From Escherichia phage Ecwhy_1: a stretch of DNA of 64,000 nucleotides. Both the position numbers and the translations under genes were made by a program. The stretch lies in the sequence record MH791411.1. One strand, written 5' to 3'. Shown here piece by piece: positions 1-53,943 of the stretch. The notes under the pieces are model-generated. The model did not search any database. It worked only from the letters and a program-made list of their open reading frames with translations, and was not told the DNA's origin. Numbering within the stretch: position 1 is the first letter of the stretch; each line of letters opens with the position of its first letter.

Positions 1-53
1 AGTACTACGTTGTCGTATACGTGTGCATTGATAGTGATTTCGATAGTGTTCAT
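1..53 (-). CDS. hypothetical protein, N-terminal part only (gene runs off window start)
   Basis: ATG at 53 with AGGAG SD upstream; reads MNTIEITINAHVYDNVV; PeSL-like cassette upstream. Confidence 0.4.
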   Translation of the reverse strand, partial: MNTIEITINAHVYDNVV

Positions 54-140
54 GGTGTATCTCCTGGACTTGAGGGGAAACCATTTCCCCCTCTCGATAT
101 AAAACATTATACGTTAATCTAACTACAATGCAAGTACTTT
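54..140 (-). promoter_or_regulatory. PeSL-like cassette: early promoter + stem-loop + SD
   Basis: minus strand TTGCAT/TTGACA -35, TATAAT -10, then GGGGGAAATGGTTTCCCC hairpin just upstream of ATG. Confidence 0.6.
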
Positions 141-332
141 TTAAATTTTATTTCCGATATAGTCCGGCATGTTCTTTTCAGTCATACGCTTTGCTAATGT
201 CTGCATATGGCTTATAGCGTTCAAGGTGTCTTCCTCCAGGGATGAATCGAGATAATCAGGATCATTCTTCACCTTGCAATGATTATGATAGCGTAGTACT
301 GCCAGTACTTTTTTAACTTCTTCTACTGTCAT
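141..332 (-). CDS. hypothetical protein (63 aa)
   Basis: ORF track; ATG overlaps stop of upstream gene (ATGA coupling). Confidence 0.6.
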   Translation of the reverse strand: MTVEEVKKVLAVLRYHNHCKVKNDPDYLDSSLEEDTLNAISHMQTLAKRMTEKNMPDYIGNKI

Positions 333-601
333 AATAAGTACCCCACTTCGTTAGCTTTCAGGTTAGTATCAATCATCAGTGGATTTTTGTAGTTCACAAA
401 ACGAGTAGTTTTCTCGATAGCGAATCCCATATAATCCAGCTTACTAACAGTACATTCATTCTTAAAAACTTCTTTCGCTGCATCGATGGCTGATTGCATG
501 GATAACCGACCATCTAAATTAATGTTTCCAAATGATCCACCAGCAGAAGTAGGATTACCGTTCATATCTTTAATGATCATAGTAGCGGAGTAGCTGGACA
601 T
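329..601 (-). CDS. hypothetical protein (90 aa)
   Basis: ORF track; ATG preceded by AAAGGAAAC SD and PeSL-like cassette. Confidence 0.65.
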   Translation of the reverse strand: MSSYSATMIIKDMNGNPTSAGGSFGNINLDGRLSMQSAIDAAKEVFKNECTVSKLDYMGFAIEKTTRFVNYKNPLMIDTNLKANEVGYLL

Positions 602-690
602 AATTTTGTTTCCTTTTATTGGTGTGGGGAGAACTATTCTCCCCTTGATGTAAACTATTATACAGTACTAAAATACTTTGTCAAATACTT
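602..690 (-). promoter_or_regulatory. PeSL-like cassette
   Basis: TTGACA-17-TATAAT then GGGGAGAATAGTTCTCCCC hairpin (minus strand). Confidence 0.65.
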
Positions 691-1098
691 TTATTCGCCC
701 ATATAGATTAGATTATCATCGCCTACATAGGGATCGCAAACGTTGATTTCTTCACAGTACTTCGTGAATACATCGCCATAGTGACCTAAACCACGATCCC
801 AAAAACCAGTTCCGTGACCTTCGCGGGTAAGGAACAGATCATGACCAGCTTGCTCATAACCGTAATCAATAAACATACCGCGAACTACTTCCAGATCATT
901 ACCGTGTTTCTCAATGAAGCGAGAACATGCAATCACCGCCGCTTGACGTGCTTCATCAGATAACTCATAATCTTCCAGGTAATCGCCGTTATCATTATGT
1001 ACAGTACTGAATTGCATAGCTTCAATGTAAGCTACAACCATTGCAGCATGATTTTTATCGTTAGTGATGTTCCGAGCGAGATTAGTAGTAGTAGACAT
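691..1098 (-). CDS. hypothetical protein (135 aa)
   Basis: ORF track; ATG start; PeSL-like cassette upstream. Confidence 0.65.
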   Translation of the reverse strand: MSTTTNLARNITNDKNHAAMVVAYIEAMQFSTVHNDNGDYLEDYELSDEARQAAVIACSRFIEKHGNDLEVVRGMFIDYGYEQAGHDLFLTREGHGTGFWDRGLGHYGDVFTKYCEEINVCDPYVGDDNLIYMGE

Positions 1099-1181
1099 GA
1101 TTTTATTCCTTATTGTATTGGGGAGAACTATTCTCCCCTTGATGTAAACTATTATACAGTACTGATATACTTTGTCAATAC
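1099..1181 (-). promoter_or_regulatory. PeSL-like cassette
   Basis: TTGACA-17-TATAAT + GGGGAGAA..TTCTCCCC hairpin. Confidence 0.65.
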
Positions 1182-1403
1182 TTAATTACGTTTAAAATGA
1201 TATGTGCCTTTATCATCCTGTACGCCCCATACTGATTTACCATCAACACCAGTGAAGCCGGATTGTAATTCAATATGGAAACCATTATTATCAACTACAA
1301 AAACTTTTTTATTTTCATCCCGATAACATTGATATTCTGAATCAACATTAAAGGCCGCATCATTCAGACGATTGGAAGCGTAAATGCAAGTCATTGTAGT
1401 CAT
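1182..1403 (-). CDS. hypothetical protein (73 aa)
   Basis: track ORF trimmed: first 11 codons are read-through of the hairpin; start MTTMTC after SD. Confidence 0.55.
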   Translation of the reverse strand: MTTMTCIYASNRLNDAAFNVDSEYQCYRDENKKVFVVDNNGFHIELQSGFTGVDGKSVWGVQDDKGTYHFKRN

Positions 1404-1500
1404 GATTTTATTCCTTAATATACCAGGGAGAACCATTCCCCCTCTCGATATAAAACATTATACTTGATTCTAAGTACAATGCAAGTACTTTTTTAAAAAT
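1404..1500 (-). promoter_or_regulatory. PeSL-like cassette
   Basis: TTGCAT-N17-TATAAT + GGGGGAATGGTTCTCCC hairpin. Confidence 0.6.
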
Positions 1501-1504
1501 AGTT

Positions 1505-1627
1505 TTCAGTACTGAATACTTATATAATAGATACACTTCCGCACCCTATGGGTCAGTGAGTTATCTCTCAATGGATATATAATAGCAAAGGGACTGACCG
1601 GAGTCAATCCCTTTTTTTAATCTTTTT
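1505..1627. repeat. conserved ~120-bp intergenic element, copy 1
   Basis: shares AGATACACTnnnGCACCCTRTGGG box and GGGACTGACCGGAGTCAATCCC hairpin + T7 run with copies at 4785 and 8785. Confidence 0.6.
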
Positions 1628-2212
1628 TTATCGTGTTACCTTACTTGCTGCCACATCACGCTTTTTATAGTACTGATTCCAGATATTGCTGGTTAAACCG
1701 TAATCAAGTACTTTAATAAGTCCATTACGATCCTGGCCGATATTCTGTTTTCTGATATCTCTTATCGTTAGTGTTGATAATGTATCATCAACGTGTTGTA
1801 GTGCATCAGCAAAGCGGTGCTGGCGTTCGATTGCATTACGTTTAATATTGTACTTTAATTCATTGCACGCGTTTACGTGCTTCACACTGCCTTTGCTTGC
1901 AGTACTCAACCGATCCATAACGATAAACATATTATCAGGATCGCATAAATGCATATGCACCTTTGCAAAGTACTGTTTCAATTGAGGGCGGTCATAGTCT
2001 AAAAAATTCCATACCTTACATTCAGTTTCATTTTGTTCTACACCCGCATCACAATTCGCGACCTTAATCACTAACCGATCATTTAAAGCGAAAACTATAC
2101 GGGAAGAACCAGCACCGATGATCTCCAGGCCAGCTAACCGACAAGCTGAAAGGATCTCTTTGTTGGTTTCCATTTCTGACAGTGTACGGATGAATTTAGT
2201 ATAATTACGCAT
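1628..2212 (-). CDS. protein kinase-like protein (194 aa)
   Basis: track ORF starts at TTG inside promoter; ATG (MRNYTKF) follows AAGGAG; IGAGSSRIVF..VIKVA and RDIRKQN..VLDYG resemble kinase G-loop/Lys/catalytic loop/DFG. Confidence 0.5.
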   Translation of the reverse strand: MRNYTKFIRTLSEMETNKEILSACRLAGLEIIGAGSSRIVFALNDRLVIKVANCDAGVEQNETECKVWNFLDYDRPQLKQYFAKVHMHLCDPDNMFIVMDRLSTASKGSVKHVNACNELKYNIKRNAIERQHRFADALQHVDDTLSTLTIRDIRKQNIGQDRNGLIKVLDYGLTSNIWNQYYKKRDVAASKVTR

Positions 2213-2243
2213 TGCATGTTCTCCTTGAGTTAATGAAACTATA

Positions 2244-2486
2244 TTACAGTACTTTACTATCAATGGCAACTACTTTTTTAACATTAACGGCGTGGATCAC
2301 TTCCTTCGTGTTTTTAGTACTGAATACTTTCGCCGCTCCTTGTTCGACCGTGATACGATAGCGACCATTAACATCAACCATATTAATAAAGTCCGGCGTG
2401 CTGAATGGTGTTGTTTTACATTTGAGTACTGTTAACAGTTCCACCAGCGATGTAGTTTCTTTGATACGTTTTTCTAAAGTAATCAT
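2244..2486 (-). CDS. hypothetical protein (80 aa)
   Basis: track ORF trimmed to MITLEKR; upstream 19 codons are promoter read-through. Confidence 0.5.
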   Translation of the reverse strand: MITLEKRIKETTSLVELLTVLKCKTTPFSTPDFINMVDVNGRYRITVEQGAAKVFSTKNTKEVIHAVNVKKVVAIDSKVL

Positions 2487-2543
2487 TTTGTTTCCCCCGT
2501 GTTGGTATGTACATATAGTACTAAAACATTTGAGTACTGTCAA

Positions 2544-2762
2544 TTAGATAATATTATATTTCTTAAAATAAAATGCGTCCTGTGTTGGTTGATACTCGAT
2601 ACCGTTACCGTTATTGACTTCAACTAATAAACCTTTGTCAATTAGTTTTTTAATAGTACGATACCCTTGTTGAAAATTGGTAAAATGTGAATCATTACGA
2701 AAGGTATAACCGTGCTTAACTGCTTCATCAATAGTTTTCTTTTCGATTTTAGATAATTTCAT
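2544..2762 (-). CDS. hypothetical protein (72 aa)
   Basis: track ORF trimmed to MKLSKIEK; promoter-leader duplicated from the 2244 gene. Confidence 0.5.
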   Translation of the reverse strand: MKLSKIEKKTIDEAVKHGYTFRNDSHFTNFQQGYRTIKKLIDKGLLVEVNNGNGIEYQPTQDAFYFKKYNII

Positions 2763-2815
2763 TTTGTTTCTCCCGTGTTGGTATGTGTACATAGTACTAA
2801 AACAATTGAGTACTG

Positions 2816-3070
2816 TCAACGTGATATTAGTTTTATTTTCTTATTGTATTGTTGATGCTCATAAAGGTTTATCTTTCCTGTGTTCTCGATTACTATCCTG
2901 TTGTTAGTGTCCACGTCGATTACACGCAGTTTCCCGTTGCTTAACTTCCTAGGTAATAGGTTACCATTAATAAACTCATTAGCAAGCTGTACGGCCTTTG
3001 TGATGATTCTCTGAGGTGCTTTATAGTGTACCCGTAAGATGTTATCTTTATATAGTTGAACCTTAATCAT
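2816..3070 (-). CDS. hypothetical protein (84 aa)
   Basis: ORF track; ATG after AGGACAAACAAA. Confidence 0.55.
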   Translation of the reverse strand: MIKVQLYKDNILRVHYKAPQRIITKAVQLANEFINGNLLPRKLSNGKLRVIDVDTNNRIVIENTGKINLYEHQQYNKKIKLISR

Positions 3071-3084
3071 TTTGTTTGTCCTAT

Positions 3085-3115
3085 AAAAAAGGCGGGAACT
3101 GATCCCGCCGTGTTG
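3085..3115 (-). terminator. rho-independent terminator candidate
   Basis: GGCGGGATCAGTTCCCGCC hairpin followed by TTTTTT on minus strand after stop of 3132 gene. Confidence 0.6.
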
Positions 3116-3131
3116 TTAGTACTGCAAGTTA

Positions 3132-3527
3132 TTAGATAACCTGGCGGCGTTTACTGTATACTGTTACACGATTACCCTTACGATCATGTCGGATCTCTTT
3201 CTGGTTGCGAATCAGTTCACTTGGACGCTTAAGGTTTGCCAGGTGATCCGCGTGAGTCCATGCGGTGTGGTTTACCTGTACTTTGATATCAGAATCAGCG
3301 ATAAACTCATCTTGTGCGTCAAGTATTGCCGCCAGCATATCCGCTCGTTTTAGTTCTGCTGCTGTCAGTACTGGCTCAGGTGAATTCACAATATCAGAGA
3401 TTTCTTTGAACTGTACGGCCCAGCGTTGACCTTTCGTTGCATCTTTGCCCATGTCTTTAAATGCTGCTCCTTCCTCGCGTGCAACAATACGGGCAGCTTC
3501 ACGGGTAGCGTAGAATTTAGTAATCAT
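3132..3527 (-). CDS. hypothetical protein; paralog of 16542-16808
   Basis: shared KYFATREQARIAAR..GATFKDMG..DRKGNRVTVY; start set at MITKF after AGGA. Confidence 0.6.
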   Translation of the reverse strand: MITKFYATREAARIVAREEGAAFKDMGKDATKGQRWAVQFKEISDIVNSPEPVLTAAELKRADMLAAILDAQDEFIADSDIKVQVNHTAWTHADHLANLKRPSELIRNQKEIRHDRKGNRVTVYSKRRQVI

Positions 3528-3622
3528 GGTATACATCCTATTAGTTGAGTTAGTACTACAAGTTAGAGTCTATTATAAAGTACTATCTGGGCAATGTCAA
3601 ATAGTACTTTAAATGGATTCTA

Positions 3623-3946
3623 TTACATGTCTTTCTTACGTTTTACATCGTGGTAGCGAACTGTTATTTCTTTGTTGATCTCTTCCTCGATGCGATGAAT
3701 AACTTTTTCTTTCGGGTTGAAACCTATAACGGTTTCTTTAATGATCTCCAAGCCCGTGTATTCGCCTTGTGTACCGTAACCGTATGTAAAGGTTTCGTGT
3801 CCCAGGTCTTCCCAGCGGTCGCCAATTAACGCAGACACGTAGCAAGAGTGGTAAGTATTGCCGTGTGAATCAGTCCACCGATTAACGTTAATGTCAAAGG
3901 AGGTTACAATTTTCAATTCTACTTTCTGGGCAAGGATCATAGCCAT
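3623..3946 (-). CDS. hypothetical protein; paralog of 10466-10789
   Basis: shared RWTDSxGNTYHSCxVS..TYGY..VKRKKD; ATG start. Confidence 0.65.
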   Translation of the reverse strand: MAMILAQKVELKIVTSFDINVNRWTDSHGNTYHSCYVSALIGDRWEDLGHETFTYGYGTQGEYTGLEIIKETVIGFNPKEKVIHRIEEEINKEITVRYHDVKRKKDM

Positions 3947-4033
3947 TTTTATTTCTCTCTCTTTGTTAGGAGGGGAACCATTCCCCTCGCTTGATGTAAA
4001 CTATTATACAGTACTAAGATACTTTGTCAATAC
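3947..4033 (-). promoter_or_regulatory. PeSL-like cassette
   Basis: TTGACA-17-TATAAT + GGGGAATGGTTCCCC hairpin. Confidence 0.65.
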
Positions 4034-4216
4034 TTATTTTTTGGAAAGTTTACGCATTAATTCTACGCTTTCTTGTGAACGTTTTGCTACCTGGCAAGCT
4101 GTATGGGCAGTAAACATTTTTGTATAGTCTGACGCTTTGCCACCGAACCGAGCGGCACGTTCACGGGCACTTGGAACTAATACTATTTCTTTATTACAGA
4201 TAGTGCACTTAGCCAT
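4034..4216 (-). CDS. hypothetical small Cys-containing protein (60 aa)
   Basis: trimmed to MAKCTICNK; CxxC near N-terminus. Confidence 0.55.
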   Translation of the reverse strand: MAKCTICNKEIVLVPSARERAARFGGKASDYTKMFTAHTACQVAKRSQESVELMRKLSKK

Positions 4217-4304
4217 TTTTATTTCTCTCTCTTTGTTAGGAGGGGAACCGTTTCCCCTCACTTGATGTAAACTATTATACAGTACTAAGATACTTTGTCA
4301 ATAC
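4217..4304 (-). promoter_or_regulatory. PeSL-like cassette
   Basis: TTGACA-17-TATAAT + GGGGAAACGGTTCCCC hairpin. Confidence 0.65.
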
Positions 4305-4580
4305 TTAAGTATTGTAAATGTCGTGAATAGTGATAAAGTTTTTACGACCGTAAACATGTAAATCAGTATCAATGTAGTGCTTATCAAGTACATCCTCGAC
4401 GCTTAAAGACGTGTCGTGAATATCTTCATAAAATTGTGGATCAACAATCGTGCTTAAGTCATCTGGCGTTAACTTATCGTTAAGGCATTGAACCGCCTGG
4501 ATATCTGCTTCACGTTTCCATTGTTCCAGATTAGTAGTCAGTACTTGCTCGATTTCGTTAGCTGTAAGTAAAGTCCGCAT
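4305..4580 (-). CDS. hypothetical protein (91 aa)
   Basis: ORF track; ATG after AAGGAAAC. Confidence 0.6.
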   Translation of the reverse strand: MRTLLTANEIEQVLTTNLEQWKREADIQAVQCLNDKLTPDDLSTIVDPQFYEDIHDTSLSVEDVLDKHYIDTDLHVYGRKNFITIHDIYNT

Positions 4581-4600
4581 TTTAATGTTTCCTTATCAGT

Positions 4601-4740
4601 GGTTGATGTAAGTATTATACTCGTTTACTTTCTATTGTCAAACTATTTTATCAGGGGAGTTTTTCGTATGTCTTACTCCTGGACTACTTAACGGGGTTAC
4701 TTATTTCGTTCCCCGTCCTGATGTAAAACATTATACTTGA
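4601..4740 (-). repeat. duplicated structured leader, copy A (copy B at 15826-15960)
   Basis: ~140 bp near-identical; two hairpins (ACGGGG..CCCCGT; CAGGAGT..ACTCCCCTG) between tandem promoters. Confidence 0.6.
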
Positions 4741-4784
4741 TTCTAAGTACAATGCAAGTACTTTTTTAAAAATAGTTTTCAGTA

Positions 4785-4895
4785 CTAGCCACCAGCAAAC
4801 AATAGATACATTTATGCACCCTGTGGGCTAATTTGTTTCTATGCGTATATAATAGCAAAGGGACTGACCGGAGTCAATCCCTTTTTCAAATATTT
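4785..4895. repeat. conserved ~120-bp intergenic element, copy 2
   Basis: GCACCCTGTGGGC box + GGGACTGACCGGAGTCAATCCC hairpin + T-run. Confidence 0.6.
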
Positions 4896-5045
4896 TTAAA
4901 CTTCTTTCGGGTTGCGATATGTGATAGCGTTCGGGTACATTTGTTTAATGTTATTCCATGCCTGGTTAACATTATAACCACTTGATCGAATCAGTTGGTT
5001 ATTACCGACACCTTGAAACACTACTTCAAATAAGAATTCTTTCAT
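4896..5045 (-). CDS. hypothetical small protein (49 aa; below track cutoff)
   Basis: ATG overlaps stop of 5042 gene (ATGA); reads MKEFLFEVVFQGVGNNQLIR. Confidence 0.4.
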   Translation of the reverse strand: MKEFLFEVVFQGVGNNQLIRSSGYNVNQAWNNIKQMYPNAITYRNPKEV

Positions 5046-5215
5046 GCTTTCACCTCTCGATCTGCTTTGCCTTTACGCCAGGCCGTTGCTAATTGTTCGC
5101 GTTGCCATAAGTCGAGTGATACGTAAAGTTTTGCATTATCACCCTTCGGATATTCGCCAGTAGTACCAATCCGATAAAACAGATCTTTCAGTACTGTTAA
5201 TTCTACCTGGACCAT
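5042..5215 (-). CDS. hypothetical protein (57 aa)
   Basis: trimmed to MVQVELT after hairpin read-through. Confidence 0.5.
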   Translation of the reverse strand: MVQVELTVLKDLFYRIGTTGEYPKGDNAKLYVSLDLWQREQLATAWRKGKADREVKA

Positions 5216-5302
5216 TATACTTTCCTCTTTGTTAGGAGGGGAACTATTCCCCTTCCGATATAAAACATTATACACTTTATTCAGTACTGTGCAAGTACTT
5301 TT
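5216..5302 (-). promoter_or_regulatory. PeSL-like cassette
   Basis: promoter + GGGGAATAGTTCCCC hairpin. Confidence 0.6.
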
Positions 5303-5515
5303 TTAATCTTTCAGCCAATGATCCTGAATGAATTTTTCACCGGAACCTTGCTGCATTGATTGTAACAGACGTTCGCGATGAGCGGCGGCGAATTGCTCAG
5401 TACTATGCGTTACACCTGGTTGATATCTGGATTCACCATTTGGGGCGATGTATTGTACATCCCACGGTTTTTCGTTAGTATCAGACCATTTACGAACGAT
5501 TAGTTGACCTTGCAT
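5303..5515 (-). CDS. hypothetical protein (70 aa)
   Basis: ORF track; ATG start. Confidence 0.6.
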   Translation of the reverse strand: MQGQLIVRKWSDTNEKPWDVQYIAPNGESRYQPGVTHSTEQFAAAHRERLLQSMQQGSGEKFIQDHWLKD

Positions 5516-5598
5516 TTTTCTTTCCTCTTAGTGGGGAGAATCATTTCTCCCCTTCATGTAAACTATTATACAGTACTGGATTGCATTGTCAATAGTTT
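5516..5598 (-). promoter_or_regulatory. PeSL-like cassette
   Basis: TTGACA-17-TATAAT + GGGGAGAAATGATTCTCCCC hairpin. Confidence 0.65.
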
Positions 5599-5922
5599 TT
5601 ATTCACCTTGTTTGAATATAGTTTTCTCCATTGATTCCATGATTGCAACCAATACAGCATGGATCTCACTTAACGCGGCATCACTAAAAGCATTAATGAA
5701 TAGGCAATCATTCTCGCGAATATTTTTAATGTACTTATCAGCAGTGGTTGCGAATTCATTCAACGGCAGATCAAATGCTTTATCCCATAATGGATGGCGT
5801 AACTGTAACAGTACTGGATTATCACGATCACCAGGGGAAAACGTACCAGTGATGAAACATACGCCCGGAATACTTTCGAACTGGCAACGGACTTCCTTTG
5901 TGATAGTAGTATGAATGTACAT
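5599..5922 (-). CDS. hypothetical protein (107 aa)
   Basis: ORF track; GAGGA SD. Confidence 0.6.
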   Translation of the reverse strand: MYIHTTITKEVRCQFESIPGVCFITGTFSPGDRDNPVLLQLRHPLWDKAFDLPLNEFATTADKYIKNIRENDCLFINAFSDAALSEIHAVLVAIMESMEKTIFKQGE

Positions 5923-5949
5923 TTATTGTTATCCTCTATTAAATTAATA

Positions 5950-6138
5950 TTACAGTTTATGAATTAATTCTTTATCTAAGCGATAGCGTACATTATTAAT
6001 GGTAACAGCATTATTTTTAATGCTACGCTGTACGGGTCCACCAGCAATAACAAACGTTGCTTTATTGCCCCGAACAATGATAGCACTTCCAGGATTACCG
6101 AAATCATCTTGTACTAAAATACTTGATAAGTTTTCCAT
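5950..6138 (-). CDS. hypothetical protein (62 aa)
   Basis: ORF track. Confidence 0.55.
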   Translation of the reverse strand: MENLSSILVQDDFGNPGSAIIVRGNKATFVIAGGPVQRSIKNNAVTINNVRYRLDKELIHKL

Positions 6139-8784: not shown

Positions 8785-8905
8785 TTCAGTACTCAATACT
8801 CATATAATAGATACACTTATGCACCCTGTGGGCTAGTGAGCTATCTCTCAATGAATATATAATAGCAAAATGGCTGACCGGAGTCAACCACTTTTTTCAT
8901 TTATT
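8785..8905. repeat. conserved ~120-bp intergenic element, copy 3
   Basis: GCACCCTGTGGGC box + TGGCTGACCGGAGTCAACCA hairpin + T6. Confidence 0.6.
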
Positions 8906-42913: not shown

Positions 42914-42980
42914 TTCGTTATCCTCATCAATTGATGAAATAATTATAGCAAAAAGGGCTGACCTAAGTCAACCCTTTTGT
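42914..42980 (-). promoter_or_regulatory. class-B cassette: terminator hairpin overlapping promoter
   Basis: GGGTTGAC-loop-GTCAGCCC hairpin + T-run; TTGACT (in stem) ~N18 TATAAT; GAGGA SD. Confidence 0.6.
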
Positions 42981-44553: not shown

Positions 44554-44673
44554 GTATTGCCTCTTGAGATGATGAAATAATTATAGCAAAAAGGGCTGAC
44601 CTAAGTCAACCCTGTTTTAAAGTTTTTTTAATATGTTGATAACGACGGTATGTATTCACCATCTGTCATCATT
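44554..44673 (-). promoter_or_regulatory. class-B cassette
   Basis: same ~45 bp as 42925-42975. Confidence 0.6.
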
Positions 44674-45842: not shown

Positions 45843-46358
45843 TTAATAATTATTCATTTCATCTTTGATTTGTTCTTCAATTTCGTCGAACATATCAGTA
45901 CTAGATTCTATATTACTACTTACGTCCTGCATATCTTTAACGTACTGTGGGCGTTCAACGTCAGTAAATTTATACCACATAGGCTTCATATGGAGCTTCT
46001 CAATCAAACGCTCACGAGACATTTTAATCTCTGACTCCGATGGTACGTAGTCATTACAAAACTCAGCAGGGAAGCCGCTAATGTCGTTTACTTCAGTGTT
46101 TTGAATCTTCATCCCACGACGCAAACATTCGTTAACAATATCAATATGACGCTTCTGTAAGTACAATAACTTGTTGTAGAAGAATGTTACATGACCTGAA
46201 CCTAACAGGTAAGTACTGTTAATTTTGAAATCACGGACTCGCTTACGTGCTTGAACATGTTTTTGTACAGCACCAAACACACGTGGGAGTTCACGATATT
46301 CAGCCATCAGATGTTGGTCAGCAAGTTCTTTAACGTGTACTAAGTTAATGCGTGTCAT
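45843..46358 (-). CDS. denV: endonuclease V (pyrimidine-dimer DNA glycosylase), T4 DenV homolog
   Basis: [42 protein letters not shown] recalled T4 DenV signature; extra ~33-aa acidic C-terminus. Confidence 0.85.
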
Positions 46359-46430
46359 GTATTCATCCTCTCGTTTCGATGAAATGATTATAGCAAAAAG
46401 GGCTGACCGAAGTCAACCCGTTTTGAAAGG
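46359..46430 (-). promoter_or_regulatory. class-B cassette
   Basis: GGGTTGACTTCGGTCAGCCC hairpin + T-run + TATAAT. Confidence 0.6.
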
Positions 46431-46700: not shown

Positions 46701-46977
46701 TACCCAACTTCACAATCTCATACCCATCCAAATATCCATATGAACACTCAGGCGTTTCATAAGATGAACCATCATGGATGCCCTGGCATTGACTTTTGGA
46801 ATTCTCAAGCAATCGTTGCAGTACTGATACGTCATCAAGAACGTAATACAAGTTAGCATATAGGTCCGTTACAATACAGTACTCCAACATGTCAAATGTA
46901 TCAATCGAAATTTCAACCTTAGCAAATTGTTTCTTTTCTTTATTATACAGTGCGTACATATTAATCTCCATAATCAA
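46687..46977 (-). CDS. hypothetical protein (96 aa)
   Basis: ORF track. Confidence 0.5.
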   Translation of the reverse strand: MIMEINMYALYNKEKKQFAKVEISIDTFDMLEYCIVTDLYANLYYVLDDVSVLQRLLENSKSQCQGIHDGSSYETPECSYGYLDGYEIVKLGIVGC

Positions 46978-47332
46978 GTTTAACTAACTTACCACCCAGA
47001 TACCCAAAGTTTTCTGGCTTCGCATCTGAATAGAAGAAGTCAGTACTCAACTCTGAATCCAATGCTAAAGCACACAACTCCACCCAAAATAAACCCCTAT
47101 GTTGTACTGGCTTACAACGTTTCTGTACAGTTACTAGTCCAGTACATGATGACCACAACGTAGGGCAGATACCACTATCACTACGCTTGGAGTACTGCAT
47201 CCAAGAACGTTCATTGAGGTTAGCTATCATCCCTGTTAAGAATAGCTTCCAACTTTTAAAGGTTGGAATCTTGATAGCATATTCCCCAATGAGTATGACA
47301 GTTCGTGTTGCACCTTTCAAATCTATATTCAT
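46961..47332 (-). CDS. hypothetical protein with kinase-like catalytic motifs (123 aa)
   Basis: DAKPENFGY..KLVKLDYGD resembles kinase catalytic loop + DFG; too short for full kinase. Confidence 0.45.
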   Translation of the reverse strand: MNIDLKGATRTVILIGEYAIKIPTFKSWKLFLTGMIANLNERSWMQYSKRSDSGICPTLWSSCTGLVTVQKRCKPVQHRGLFWVELCALALDSELSTDFFYSDAKPENFGYLGGKLVKLDYGD

Positions 47333-47341
47333 ATTTTTTAA

Positions 47342-47593
47342 TTAGAAGAACACAAACCAAGTCCAGAATAAATTCCACACTACAAATAAAGACATAGTGG
47401 TTTTATGTACAATATCAGCAGTACTGGTCCATCCTCCACCGTGTCCTATTCCATTTATGAATAGAACTAAGAACAAGATACCATTTACTACAATAGTACA
47501 TAGTAAGTACACAAACACATTCCATGCAAGTTCAGGGGATACTAACGTAAATGGTAAAACAATTAGTAGTATTAGAACTAATAAAATTTTCAT
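47342..47593 (-). CDS. small membrane protein (83 aa)
   Basis: hydrophobic throughout. Confidence 0.55.
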   Translation of the reverse strand: MKILLVLILLIVLPFTLVSPELAWNVFVYLLCTIVVNGILFLVLFINGIGHGGGWTSTADIVHKTTMSLFVVWNLFWTWFVFF

Positions 47594-48364: not shown

Positions 48365-48440
48365 GACAATTCCTCGATTGTGGGGATGAGAAGTTCATCC
48401 CCTTGATAAACATTATACAGTACTGAATGAGTTTGTCAAC

Positions 48441-49087: not shown

Positions 49088-49456
49088 CTATCGATTTGGC
49101 ATTTTATCTCGTAATTTCACAAGATAATCAATCACGGTACATCCTGAAATAAAGGTAATATAAGTACTGAAAAATCCTACCAGAATAAAGGCAACAAGCG
49201 TACTCCCATTTGGTTCTTCAGCTTTAATACCAATGATACCATCAGATGCAGTGAAAAATGTAGACATAAACGTTAGACAGATGTACATCACTAATAAGAA
49301 TTCATGTTCTAATGACGGATAAAAACGGTCAAAGAGTTTATAAAATTTAAAGTACAGTAGGAGTATACCAACAAAGGCATAGAAAGTAAACAGTGTTGTT
49401 ATGATATATGATATTAAATTTAAATTATACATCTCAACGCTCCGGTAGATTATCAC
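49088..49456 (-). CDS. small membrane protein family member (122 aa)
   Basis: same family as 39636-42075; C-term LRDKMPNR. Confidence 0.65.
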   Translation of the reverse strand: MIIYRSVEMYNLNLISYIITTLFTFYAFVGILLLYFKFYKLFDRFYPSLEHEFLLVMYICLTFMSTFFTASDGIIGIKAEEPNGSTLVAFILVGFFSTYITFISGCTVIDYLVKLRDKMPNR

Positions 49457-49781
49457 GTAATGTTTTGATTCGATTATACAATTTCATTGCTACATTTCCA
49501 AATAAACCAAAACCCATTACTAAAATGTATGCGATGAACATAGTAATAATCACAATAGTACCTAGACTGTAATGTACTGCACTAATACCCATTATTGTTT
49601 CTACAATGATGTGAGCAACAGAAATAATCAAAAGTACTACTACAATTGGATGATTTGGATACATTCGGTTAAACAATGTTTTGTACTTAAAGAAGTACAG
49701 TACTCCACCAAATAAGAAGTACACAATGTAGATTGATGCAATAGCATAAGCAAAAGCATTAGTGTAGAAAATCATTATCAA
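49434..49781 (-). CDS. small membrane protein family member (115 aa)
   Basis: C-term LRDNLPER. Confidence 0.65.
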   Translation of the reverse strand: MIMIFYTNAFAYAIASIYIVYFLFGGVLYFFKYKTLFNRMYPNHPIVVVLLIISVAHIIVETIMGISAVHYSLGTIVIITMFIAYILVMGFGLFGNVAMKLYNRIKTLRDNLPER

Positions 49782-49784
49782 TCC

Positions 49785-50123
49785 TTACTTTTCAGGGATT
49801 TTATCACGCCACTCATCAATACGATGAAGCAGTTTAAAGAGCAAAAATATCGGAACAGTAGCTATCATAATGGCAATTGTTAGTAATGTCAACCCCGATA
49901 CGAGATTTAATTCGTCAGTACTATATCCACATACCAGTGCTTCAATTATCCCCCACGTACATGCACAGAACATCATAAATGAAATGGGTGCATCGTAGTA
50001 TATGCGTTGATACAAGGTTGTGTATCGGAAGAATGCAATAATGTAACAAAACATGTAATACACCCAAATTAACGATACTACATAAAATGATACCTTATTA
50101 ATTAATTCAAAATGTTGTTCCAT
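49785..50123 (-). CDS. small membrane protein family member (112 aa)
   Basis: C-term WRDKIPEK. Confidence 0.65.
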   Translation of the reverse strand: MEQHFELINKVSFYVVSLIWVYYMFCYIIAFFRYTTLYQRIYYDAPISFMMFCACTWGIIEALVCGYSTDELNLVSGLTLLTIAIMIATVPIFLLFKLLHRIDEWRDKIPEK

Positions 50124-50133
50124 TTTTTTACCC

Positions 50134-50436
50134 CTACATATATTCTAAGAATAATGTATTAGCTTCGTCTATGTTCTTAAGATAATACATGTAATACAGA
50201 TTTGGTTGTCCGTCTTTTGAACTCAAATCAAAGTACTTTAAACTATGCACCTTCATGACAAAAACAAATAATGACTTAAAACCAATCTCACCGTACTTAA
50301 TAAACAGTTCATCTAAATGAATGTAACTCTTAGTTTCAGATAATTCCTTCACATCAGCTTCAATTTCTTGTAAGCGAAGTTTACCGATTAAGTTTTCAAA
50401 TGAACGCATGATGTTGTTCCTTATGCTGGTACACAA
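50134..50436 (-). CDS. hypothetical protein (100 aa)
   Basis: ORF track. Confidence 0.55.
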   Translation of the reverse strand: MCTSIRNNIMRSFENLIGKLRLQEIEADVKELSETKSYIHLDELFIKYGEIGFKSLFVFVMKVHSLKYFDLSSKDGQPNLYYMYYLKNIDEANTLFLEYM

Positions 50437-50834
50437 TTTTTTATAATGAATACACGTTTCATGAATGAACTTTCATATACGTACTTCAGTTTACCATTTT
50501 CACGCATACGATGAAACACATCTTTACCACTAGTACTCCATGTTGAACCAGTCTCTGCATCAACATTGTTCATTACACCAGATGTTACGTTCACCCCGTA
50601 CTTGAAGCTAAAGGTACTGCCTTCTTCTACTAGAGGGATTGGTGTACTACGTTCATGTTCCAGTACAAGTTTACTGCCGATGATGTTGTACGAAGTTAGC
50701 TTGCATTTTAAAACACCCATCTCTTGTGCAGTTGGGTAATTCTTCTCAAATAAATCAGATACTTCATTTGCATAACAAACTGAACTAATCATAAGAAGTA
50801 ATGAACTGATAGAACGGAAAATAACTTTTAACAT
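50421..50834 (-). CDS. secreted hypothetical protein (137 aa)
   Basis: signal-peptide-like N-terminus. Confidence 0.6.
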   Translation of the reverse strand: MLKVIFRSISSLLLMISSVCYANEVSDLFEKNYPTAQEMGVLKCKLTSYNIIGSKLVLEHERSTPIPLVEEGSTFSFKYGVNVTSGVMNNVDAETGSTWSTSGKDVFHRMRENGKLKYVYESSFMKRVFIIKNCVPA

Positions 50835-50900
50835 GTTTGCCTCCAGTAGTTGATGAAATGATTATAGCAAAAAGGGCCGACCGAAGTCAACCCTTTTCTT
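50835..50900 (-). promoter_or_regulatory. class-B cassette
   Basis: GGGTTGACTTCGGTCGGCCC hairpin + T-run + TATAAT. Confidence 0.6.
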
Positions 50901-51251
50901 TTATATTTTACATGTCATGTCTGGTTTTGGCTTTTCATTCTTTGGCTTTTCAAATGGATTTGGCTTAGGGGACTTTTTATCTTTGTCATCTTTAGCTTTC
51001 TTTTTGTTTTCTTTTTTATCCGATTTGTCAGCTTTGTCTTTCTTATCTTTTGAATCTTTGTCAGCTTTAGATTGTGGTTCCTCACATACAGCAGTTTTTG
51101 GCTCCGGCATATCACATGAGTTATCCACAGGTTTAATGAACTCTTTACAGTTGTAGAAGTATAAACTTTCATTGGTAGTAAGATTGTGGAATCTAAAAGT
51201 ATTTTCACCATTAGTATATACTTTCTTAGTACTCTCAATATCATTACACAT
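50901..51251 (-). CDS. Lys/Asp-rich Cys-containing protein; possibly C-terminal part of a frameshifted secreted protein
   Basis: track ORF starts at GTG; first ATG at 51251; no own signal peptide; upstream ORF with signal peptide ends 13 nt away in another frame. Confidence 0.4.
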   Translation of the reverse strand: MCNDIESTKKVYTNGENTFRFHNLTTNESLYFYNCKEFIKPVDNSCDMPEPKTAVCEEPQSKADKDSKDKKDKADKSDKKENKKKAKDDKDKKSPKPNPFEKPKNEKPKPDMTCKI

Positions 51252-53096: not shown

Positions 53097-53177
53097 ATTG
53101 TTTATTCTCTATGACTATATTTATAGTATAAAGAAAAGGTTGACCGAAGTCAACCCTATTTTCACTGTACTATACCA
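53097..53177 (-). promoter_or_regulatory. class-B hairpin + late-type promoter
   Basis: GGGTTGACTTCGGTCAACC hairpin then TATAAATA on minus strand. Confidence 0.6.
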
Positions 53178-53860: not shown

Positions 53861-53943
53861 TAATACCTCACGTTGTTTGTATTTTGTATCACTTGATGAA
53901 AATATTATACGACAAAGGGCTGACTGAAGTCAACCCCTTTTAA
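53861..53943 (-). promoter_or_regulatory. class-B cassette
   Basis: GGGGTTGACTTCAGTCAGCCC hairpin + TATAAT. Confidence 0.6.

Follow-up and report, generated by a model that had tools for sequence, protein, structure and literature searches.

Two minimal protein-kinase-like proteins of the jumbo coliphage Ecwhy_1 and their relation to a large phage-borne family

The early kinase of phage T7, T7K (gp0.7), is hyperpromiscuous and uses mass phosphorylation to disarm many bacterial defence systems; its homologues in jumbophages are devoid of the shut-off domain (PMC13645617). OspG, an active effector kinase, has a solved chain of 169 residues. The kinase fold of HopBF1, likewise an active protein kinase, is minimal and atypical (PMC9950578). 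Escherichia phage Ecwhy_1 (sequence record MH791411.1) encodes, within the 64,000-nucleotide stretch analysed here (the window), two proteins that can be compared with these kinases, the 194-residue product of open reading frame 1 (ORF1) and the 123-residue product of ORF2. By fold and catalytic residues both belong to the protein-kinase-like (PKL) superfamily; they fall outside the Pfam Pkinase family and probably outside the T7K family. They are best explained as distantly related members of one large phage-borne family, PHROG 4301, and are predicted with high confidence to be ATP-dependent kinase-fold enzymes.

ORF1 is encoded on the minus strand at 1628..2212 and is identified as a minimal protein-kinase-like protein of PHROG 4301 from the ORF listing, profile searches and a structural model. 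Its frame spans 1628..2269 on the minus strand with a TTG start (213 aa), but the internal ATG at 2212, which yields 194 aa, is the better start because a Shine-Dalgarno sequence, AAGGAG (2221..2226, minus strand), lies 8 nt upstream and every homologue begins at that methionine. A preliminary description of this gene had quoted four kinase motifs, all of which are present and in kinase order: IGAGSSRIVF (residues 32-41), VIKVA (48-52), RDIRKQN (151-157) and VLDYG (168-172). On the minus strand of the window the Gly-rich loop (G-loop) G33-A-G35-S-S-R38 is located at 2099..2116, the segment from the β3 Lys50 to the helix-C motif G57-x-x-Q60-N61-x-x-E64 at 2021..2065, the catalytic loop D152-I-R-K-Q-N157, which aligns to HRDIKPSN of MKK4, at 1742..1759 and the DFG-equivalent D170-Y-G172 at 1697..1705. 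Only 22 residues, predicted to form a single helix, follow DYG. A regular expression for the ordered motifs, composed post hoc after the motifs had been seen, matches only ORF1 and ORF2 among the 577 six-frame ORFs of the window, and residue shuffles give a mean of 0.03 matches.

The AlphaFold2 model of ORF1, based on a 54-sequence alignment, has a predicted local distance difference test score of 94.7 and a predicted template modelling score of 0.89. Two N-terminal helices and the strands β1-β3 (residues 30-52) are followed by a long helix C (55-73) and one more strand of the N-terminal lobe (N-lobe), after which come two helices including helix E (130-145), short strands at 158-160 and 166-168 and a C-terminal helix (175-193). 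The model contains the elements of the bilobal PKL fold, that is the N-lobe sheet with helix C, helix E, the catalytic loop and the β7-β8 strands with the DFG motif. Among the BFVD structures retrieved by Foldseek are the RaK2 orthologue (E 1.7e-19), numerous phage proteins 140-260 aa long and, at E-values of ~1e-6 to 1e-5, T7-type kinases. A phmmer search of PDB sequences with ORF1 returns almost only protein kinases, the best of which is MKK4 (E 0.005), with RDIRKQN placed on RDIKPSN and LDYG on CDFG. The ORF1-family profile aligns from the G-loop past DFG with MKK4 (1.5e-4) and MKK7 (2.6e-4 to 4e-4); at E<=1 it reaches 250 distinct sequences of the PDB, and almost all of the matches listed are kinases. 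The ORF2-family profile has no match among PDB sequences. The kinase-like fold proposed in the preliminary description is therefore borne out by profile and structure searches alike, as is the conservation of the catalytic residues in homologues.

This conservation was assessed in 186 domains from 155 representative proteins for the ORF1 family and in 121 sequences for the ORF2 family. In the ORF1 family K50 and D170 are present in all 186 domains, E64 in 185, G172 in 184, D152 in 179 (with Glu in 5 more) and G35 in 178. The corresponding ORF2-family counts are 119/121 for K21, 121/121 for E41, 111/121 for D103 (plus 7 Glu), 109 for K105, 98 for P106, 111 for N108 and 118 for D120. The residues found include the β3 Lys/helix-C Glu pair, the Asp and Asn of the catalytic loop (D-x4-N) and the Mg-binding Asp of DFG, which together characterise the PKL superfamily. 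Departures from the classical pattern are also conserved. The Gly-rich loop reads GxGSSR in ORF1 and GxTR in ORF2, such that an invariant Arg (R38 in ORF1, 183/186; R10 in ORF2) occupies the position of the third Gly in GxGxxG, and helix C of the ORF1 family starts with a conserved G-x-x-Q-N-x-x-E (Q60 182/186, N61 181/186).

ORF2 is a kinase core of 123 aa, likewise of PHROG 4301, encoded on the minus strand at 46961..47332, and it ends one residue past its DFG-equivalent. The second short ORF with DAKPENFGY and KLDYGD that the preliminary description had pointed out is thus real: SDAKPENFGY occupies residues 102-111, and KLDYGD is terminal and followed by TAA. The catalytic loop D103-A-K-P-E-N108 (47009..47026, minus strand) has the Ser/Thr-kinase form D-x-K-P-E-N, of which the E is present in 85 of the 121 sequences, and after the DFG-equivalent D120-Y-G122 (46967..46975, minus strand) just D123 remains before the TAA. 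In 106/121 ORF2-type proteins the chain stops 0-1 residue past D-x-G, and the position of the stop is kept among phages at only 32-57% identity. ORF2 is not a broken gene, since this stop is conserved, the downstream genes differ in three contexts and in the window the ATG of the next gene directly follows the ORF2 TAA. A truncated or frameshifted pseudogene is ruled out by the 106/121 homologues that terminate at the same place and by the clean TAA, and half of a split kinase completed by a downstream ORF is ruled out by the dissimilarity of the downstream genes in three unrelated contexts.

No gene was found to accompany ORF2 consistently in the neighbourhoods compared. A very small, strongly hydrophobic (membrane-like) ORF directly flanks the ORF2-type gene in three unrelated phage contexts (window 47342-47593 on the minus strand, locus L008 3894-4004 and locus L010 4381-4590); the three sequences are mutually dissimilar, and their position could reflect a coincidence of accessory regions or a functional pairing. 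ORF2-type genes are also found in phage contigs of ~64-69 kb, one of which has an SU10-type portal. On L010, a 64-kb metagenomic phage contig, a Tad2-like (PF11195, anti-Thoeris) gene at 2159-2524 lies four genes upstream of the ORF2 homologue, with ASCH, DUF4326 and HD-domain genes nearby, the whole resembling an accessory or anti-defence region.

Both proteins match PHROG 4301, a family labelled 'unknown function', ORF1 at E 1.8e-41 over profile positions 13-185 of 225 and ORF2 at E 1.8e-43 over positions 40-167, and PHROG 4301 is the sole PHROG matched by the distant homologues P0097, P0057 and P0026. An exhaustive profile search with the ORF1 family returns 2084 representative clusters at E<=1e-3 (254 at <=1e-10), most of them 180-280 aa long; a profile search with the ORF2 family returns 138 clusters, nearly all of 114-137 aa. 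Pairwise BLASTP of ORF1 against ORF2 gives a weak match (E 0.011); with expanded alignments, hhalign relates the two families with a probability of 97.4% (E 1.4e-11) across 118 columns that span the G-loop to DYG, and ORF1 and ORF2 are therefore distant paralogues. In NCBIfam and PADLOC neither protein has a match above threshold, with one weak kinase-type match to PD-T4-6. Among isolated phages ORF1-type genes are almost confined to jumbo phages.

The domain also occurs in multiples. In tandem arrays on metagenomic contigs of up to 185 kb (P0036, 693 aa; P0037, 923 aa; P0042; P0046), the mini-kinase domain is repeated 2-5 times within a single polypeptide, and every repeat has a GxGSSR...K...QNxxE...D...LDYG set of its own. 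P0084 and P0128 are fusions in which one mini-kinase domain is joined by another kinase-like region of greater divergence and by long extensions at the C-terminus. Phage CBB encodes adjacent ORF1-type paralogues, CBB_444 (194 aa) and CBB_445 (168 aa), at 299204-300313 (L018), both of which are among the BFVD structural matches.

By profile comparison T7K is the characterised remote homologue nearest to ORF1. Comparison of the ORF1 family with a seven-sequence T7K alignment in hhalign gives 90.8% probability (E 1.2e-6) over 147 columns from the helix before the G-loop to the DFG-equivalent, which indicates that the ORF1 family is a probable remote relative of the T7K family and not a member of it; the ORF2 family has no match to the same alignment. 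Like that of T7K, the kinase core of the ORF1 family is short, has helices ahead of the G-loop ('aGL/F..lGxG') and lacks an activation segment, the domain ending shortly past the DFG-equivalent, and T7K is a phage early gene, which is also the timing predicted for ORF1 and ORF2. Unlike ORF1 and ORF2, which both have DYG, T7K bears the hallmark DPV (PMC13645617; ITDP in the alignment). Its catalytic loop is D-x-H-x-x-N (FDMHSGN in the alignment) as opposed to D-I-R-K-Q-N in ORF1 and D-A-K-P-E-N in ORF2, and the G-loop GSSR together with the invariant R38, Q60 and N61 is a property of the ORF1 family that T7K does not share. By hmmscan, T7K and Sharanji gp144 are assigned to PHROG 2828/15752, whereas ORF1 and ORF2 are assigned to phrog_4301 only.

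Most Asteriusviruses, including G17, 121Q, PBECO4, Sharanji and phAPEC6, encode in addition a 225-aa T7K-like kinase (PHROG 15752; 'putative protein kinase' in G17, gp144 in Sharanji) ~3 kb beyond the ORF2 homologue. A tblastn search of the window found no T7K-like gene. The 1.4-kb segment that bears it (736-2136 of L004, which is Sharanji 65400-69000) is without a counterpart in the window, where ~0.7 kb of unrelated sequence stands instead at 50424-51141 and holds a 137-aa ORF whose hydrophobic N-terminus is a candidate signal peptide. As this segment has been replaced, the T7K-like kinase is missing at the syntenic locus of Ecwhy_1.

Canonical kinases (PF00069; MKK4/MKK7, PknB) share with ORF1 and ORF2 the fold of the N-lobe and of the first part of the C-terminal lobe (C-lobe), and the G-loop, β3 Lys, helix-C Glu, catalytic Asp/Asn and DFG Asp align residue for residue. 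They differ in possessing subdomains VIII to XI and the third Gly of the G-loop, the former being absent from ORF1 and ORF2 and the latter replaced by the invariant Arg. The activation segment, the P+1/APE region and helices F to I have no counterpart in either protein; in ORF1 a single C-terminal helix stands in for the region after DFG, and ORF2 has nothing there. Of the 'small Ser/Thr-type kinase' of the preliminary description the kinase fold and residues stand, whereas a complete kinase does not, as these are truncated cores below the Pkinase threshold.

The other small kinases are more remote. No sequence relationship was detected between ORF1 or ORF2 and OspG/NleH or HopBF1, whose matches to the two ORFs score no higher than those of generic kinases; nor was a type III secretion context found. 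OspG/NleH and HopBF1 are secreted into eukaryotic cells, OspG requires E2~ubiquitin as an activator, and ORF2 is much shorter than the solved chains of OspG or HopBF1. RIO, Bud32 and ArkI are cellular housekeeping enzymes (of ribosome maturation, the t6A pathway and tRNA 2'-phosphorylation) with no sequence similarity to ORF1 or ORF2 found, and the matched solved chains of ArkI, Rio1 and Rio2, with 173-269 aa, are longer than ORF2.

The genes in the ORF1 and ORF2 regions are all small and all on the minus strand. Seven perfect 12/12 consensus matches to sigma-70 promoters (TTGACA-N16/17-TATAAT) lie on the coding strand within window positions 1-6000. A 10/12 sigma-70-like match, TTGACA-17-TACTAT (2515..2543, minus strand), precedes the small gene upstream of ORF1, with no terminator-like site found between it and ORF1, and a perfect match, TTGACA-16-TATAAT (48412..48439, minus strand), opens the ORF2 gene string. 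In vB_Ec-M-J the ORF1 orthologue is inside an annotated direct terminal repeat of 21.5 kb, and in fENko-Kae01 and Muenster the ORF1 match also falls under an annotated terminal repeat. CBB_444/445 lie within the RpoD-promoter-rich region CBB_390-546, suspected by its authors to be an early host-take-over region (PMC5259590). From the promoter matches, the terminal-repeat position and the CBB region, early expression of ORF1 and ORF2 by the host polymerase can reasonably be inferred. The 'early gene' of the preliminary description is plausible on the strength of the seven sigma-70 matches within 6 kb and the terminal-repeat position in a close relative.

A GC-rich hairpin located 14 nt past the ORF1 stop (1587..1614, minus strand) contains a -35-like TTGACT in its stem, followed by TATTAT, and is a putative terminator and promoter. 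It is one of nine copies of the repeated hairpin GGRTTGACTYCGGTCAGYCC in the window (1591-1610, 4861-4880, 8871-8890, 42955-42974, 44593-44612, 46400-46419, 50874-50893, 53137-53156 and 53917-53936), all of them on the minus strand, with 0 expected by chance. The copy at 46400..46419 closes the ORF2 gene string, again as a putative terminator/promoter. The stem contains the -35-like TTGACT and, where checked, is succeeded by a T-rich stretch and a -10 of TATTAT or TATAAT. Between early genes, the hairpin looks like a terminator and a promoter compacted into one unit.

The reading favoured for ORF1 and ORF2, somewhat above an even chance, is that they are constitutively active, early, host-directed kinases that probably act on protein Ser/Thr. 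Several points weigh against it. The biochemical activity of PHROG 4301-type members is a prediction from sequence and structure models, and the Ser/Thr protein substrate is a presumed one. The Pfam Pkinase profile (PF00069) matches ORF1 at E 0.004 and 17 bits, under the gathering threshold of 31.7 bits; Pfam has no match to ORF2, and only 5/54 ORF1-family members match Pkinase at E<=0.01. In the ORF1 family the Mg-binding Asn157 is N in only 62/186 domains and otherwise His, Ser or Gln, and the D+2 Lys typical of Ser/Thr kinases is unconserved. R38, Q60 and N61 are without a classical-kinase counterpart and could point to a different acceptor, and the archaeal RNA kinase ArkI matches the ORFs as well as many protein kinases do. 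The stand-alone activity of ORF2 is uncertain because the post-DFG region anchors the hydrophobic core in classical kinases. No transcript data were found for RaK2-like phages, and the early timing rests on promoter consensus and position.

That the two proteins are kinase-fold phosphotransferases with a non-protein acceptor, such as a small molecule, a nucleotide or immune signalling nucleotide, an envelope sugar or lipid or, as for ArkI, an RNA 2'-OH, is unlikely. The part of the C-lobe that binds protein substrates is absent, classical kinase chemistry leaves the invariant R38, Q60 and N61 unexplained, SAICAR synthetase, APH and ArkI are among the matches, and one ORF2 homologue has the Tad2-like gene four genes away. 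The sequence profiles, however, match protein kinases (MKK4/7, PKC, BTK) and not APH, choline-kinase or ArkI sequences, and the nearest characterised remote homologue by profile comparison is a protein kinase, T7K. Moreover, ORF2 has the D-x-K-P-E-N loop of protein Ser/Thr kinases, and the known minimal kinases without a full C-lobe, T7K and HopBF1, are protein kinases.

Less probable again is that the proteins, and especially ORF2, are inert or barely active ATP or nucleotide binders, acting as pseudokinase-like binders, decoys or sponges for a host factor or nucleotide. ORF2 stops at DFG and is without the elements that normally support the two spines, catalytic and regulatory; Asn157 varies within the ORF1 family; and sponge action is common among small anti-defence proteins of phages. 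Pseudokinases, however, typically lose at least one of the catalytic residues, whereas here Lys, Glu and the DFG Asp are co-conserved at 97-100% down to ~20-35% identity, and the catalytic-base Asp, which binding alone would not need, is kept in 179/186 ORF1-family domains and in 111/121 ORF2-family sequences with 7 Glu besides. A chance motif match in ORFs unrelated to kinases, which the weak BLASTP match between ORF1 and ORF2 and the Pfam scores under threshold might suggest, has next to no probability in view of the profile and structure matches to kinases.

The window belongs to an Asteriusvirus jumbo coliphage with a genome of ~350 kb, of the 121Q/PBECO4/G17 group; by megablast it is 92-99% identical to 121Q, PBECO4, G17, Sharanji, phAPEC6, BF17 and others, all of them Asteriusvirus. 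T4 is ruled out as the genome context by these matches, and its early gene set, with which the preliminary description had compared ORF1, is therefore no valid yardstick. ORF1 equals Sharanji WNN14351.1, and ORF2 equals Sharanji WNN14422.1 and G17_00098. ORF1 orthologues in ph0011, SE_PL, fENko-Kae01, Turkey3/5 and fEgEco12 are already labelled 'protein kinase domain-containing protein', 'putative protein kinase' or 'serine/threonine-protein kinase', most other records being 'hypothetical', and the Sharanji genome paper counts the ORF1 orthologue as a further protein kinase without a known function (PMC11895373). The kinase resemblance of ORF1 is thus not new. In contrast, all ORF2-type genes in the records compared are 'hypothetical' and none has a kinase label, and a literature search on the PHROG 4301-type family or a 'minimal kinase' in phages found nothing. 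The new points are that a very large family without a name has been delineated, that ORF2 is homologous to the ORF1 family, that termination at the DFG motif is conserved among proteins of the ORF2 type and that certain invariant residues are specific to the family. The ORF1 orthologue of phAPEC6, gp500, goes unmentioned in the main text of the virion proteome paper, which is a weak sign that the protein is not packaged.

Just downstream of the ORF2 gene string lies a T4 DenV-type pyrimidine-dimer DNA glycosylase (endonuclease V; label taken from related records) at 45843-46358 on the minus strand, which probably contributed to the comparison with T4 in the preliminary description. Three consecutive minus-strand ORFs of 112-122 aa (49088-49456, 49434-49781 and 49785-50123) look like paralogous multi-pass membrane proteins with similar 'R/KD.(L/I/M)P(E/N)(R/K)' tails.

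If ORF1 and ORF2 are host-directed kinases, the host sigma-70 RNA polymerase would transcribe their genes right after DNA entry, that of ORF1 from the direct terminal repeat. The proteins would then bind Mg-ATP, as the conserved residues and the fold suggest, and would transfer phosphate to host targets, most likely, by analogy, to Ser/Thr of host proteins. Binding and transfer are expected because the Lys-Glu pair, the catalytic Asp and the DFG Asp are conserved. With no activation loop and an open acceptor side there would be nothing to hold the enzyme off, so that it would be constitutively 'on'; in this ORF1 and ORF2 resemble T7K and HopBF1. A Ser/Thr acceptor is favoured because the D-x-K-P-E-N of ORF2 is the Ser/Thr-kinase form of the catalytic loop. 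By analogy with the remote relative T7K, the role may be host take-over or the disarming of defences.

A bolder proposal, possible but on balance doubtful, is that both proteins are active unregulated kinases and that the ORF2 type (~120 aa, at least 138 clusters, in jumbo and ~65-kb phages) is the smallest self-sufficient protein-kinase catalytic core known. If so, phosphotransfer would need nothing past DFG, and the ORF2 type, the ORF1 type (2000 representative clusters or more) and the T7K-like genes together would imply that large phages turn several stripped-down kinases, as general weapons of the early phase, against host proteins and defence systems. An active ORF2 would also provide a natural minimal scaffold of 123 aa for asking what kinase catalysis needs, whereas inactive binders would represent a new kind of phage pseudokinase; in annotation, the 'hypothetical' genes of the ORF2 type could be renamed kinase-like. 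Beside the T7K family, the window indicates a much larger, unnamed clade of even smaller putative kinase cores. If its members are active, phage 'kinase warfare' would extend well beyond T7-like phages.

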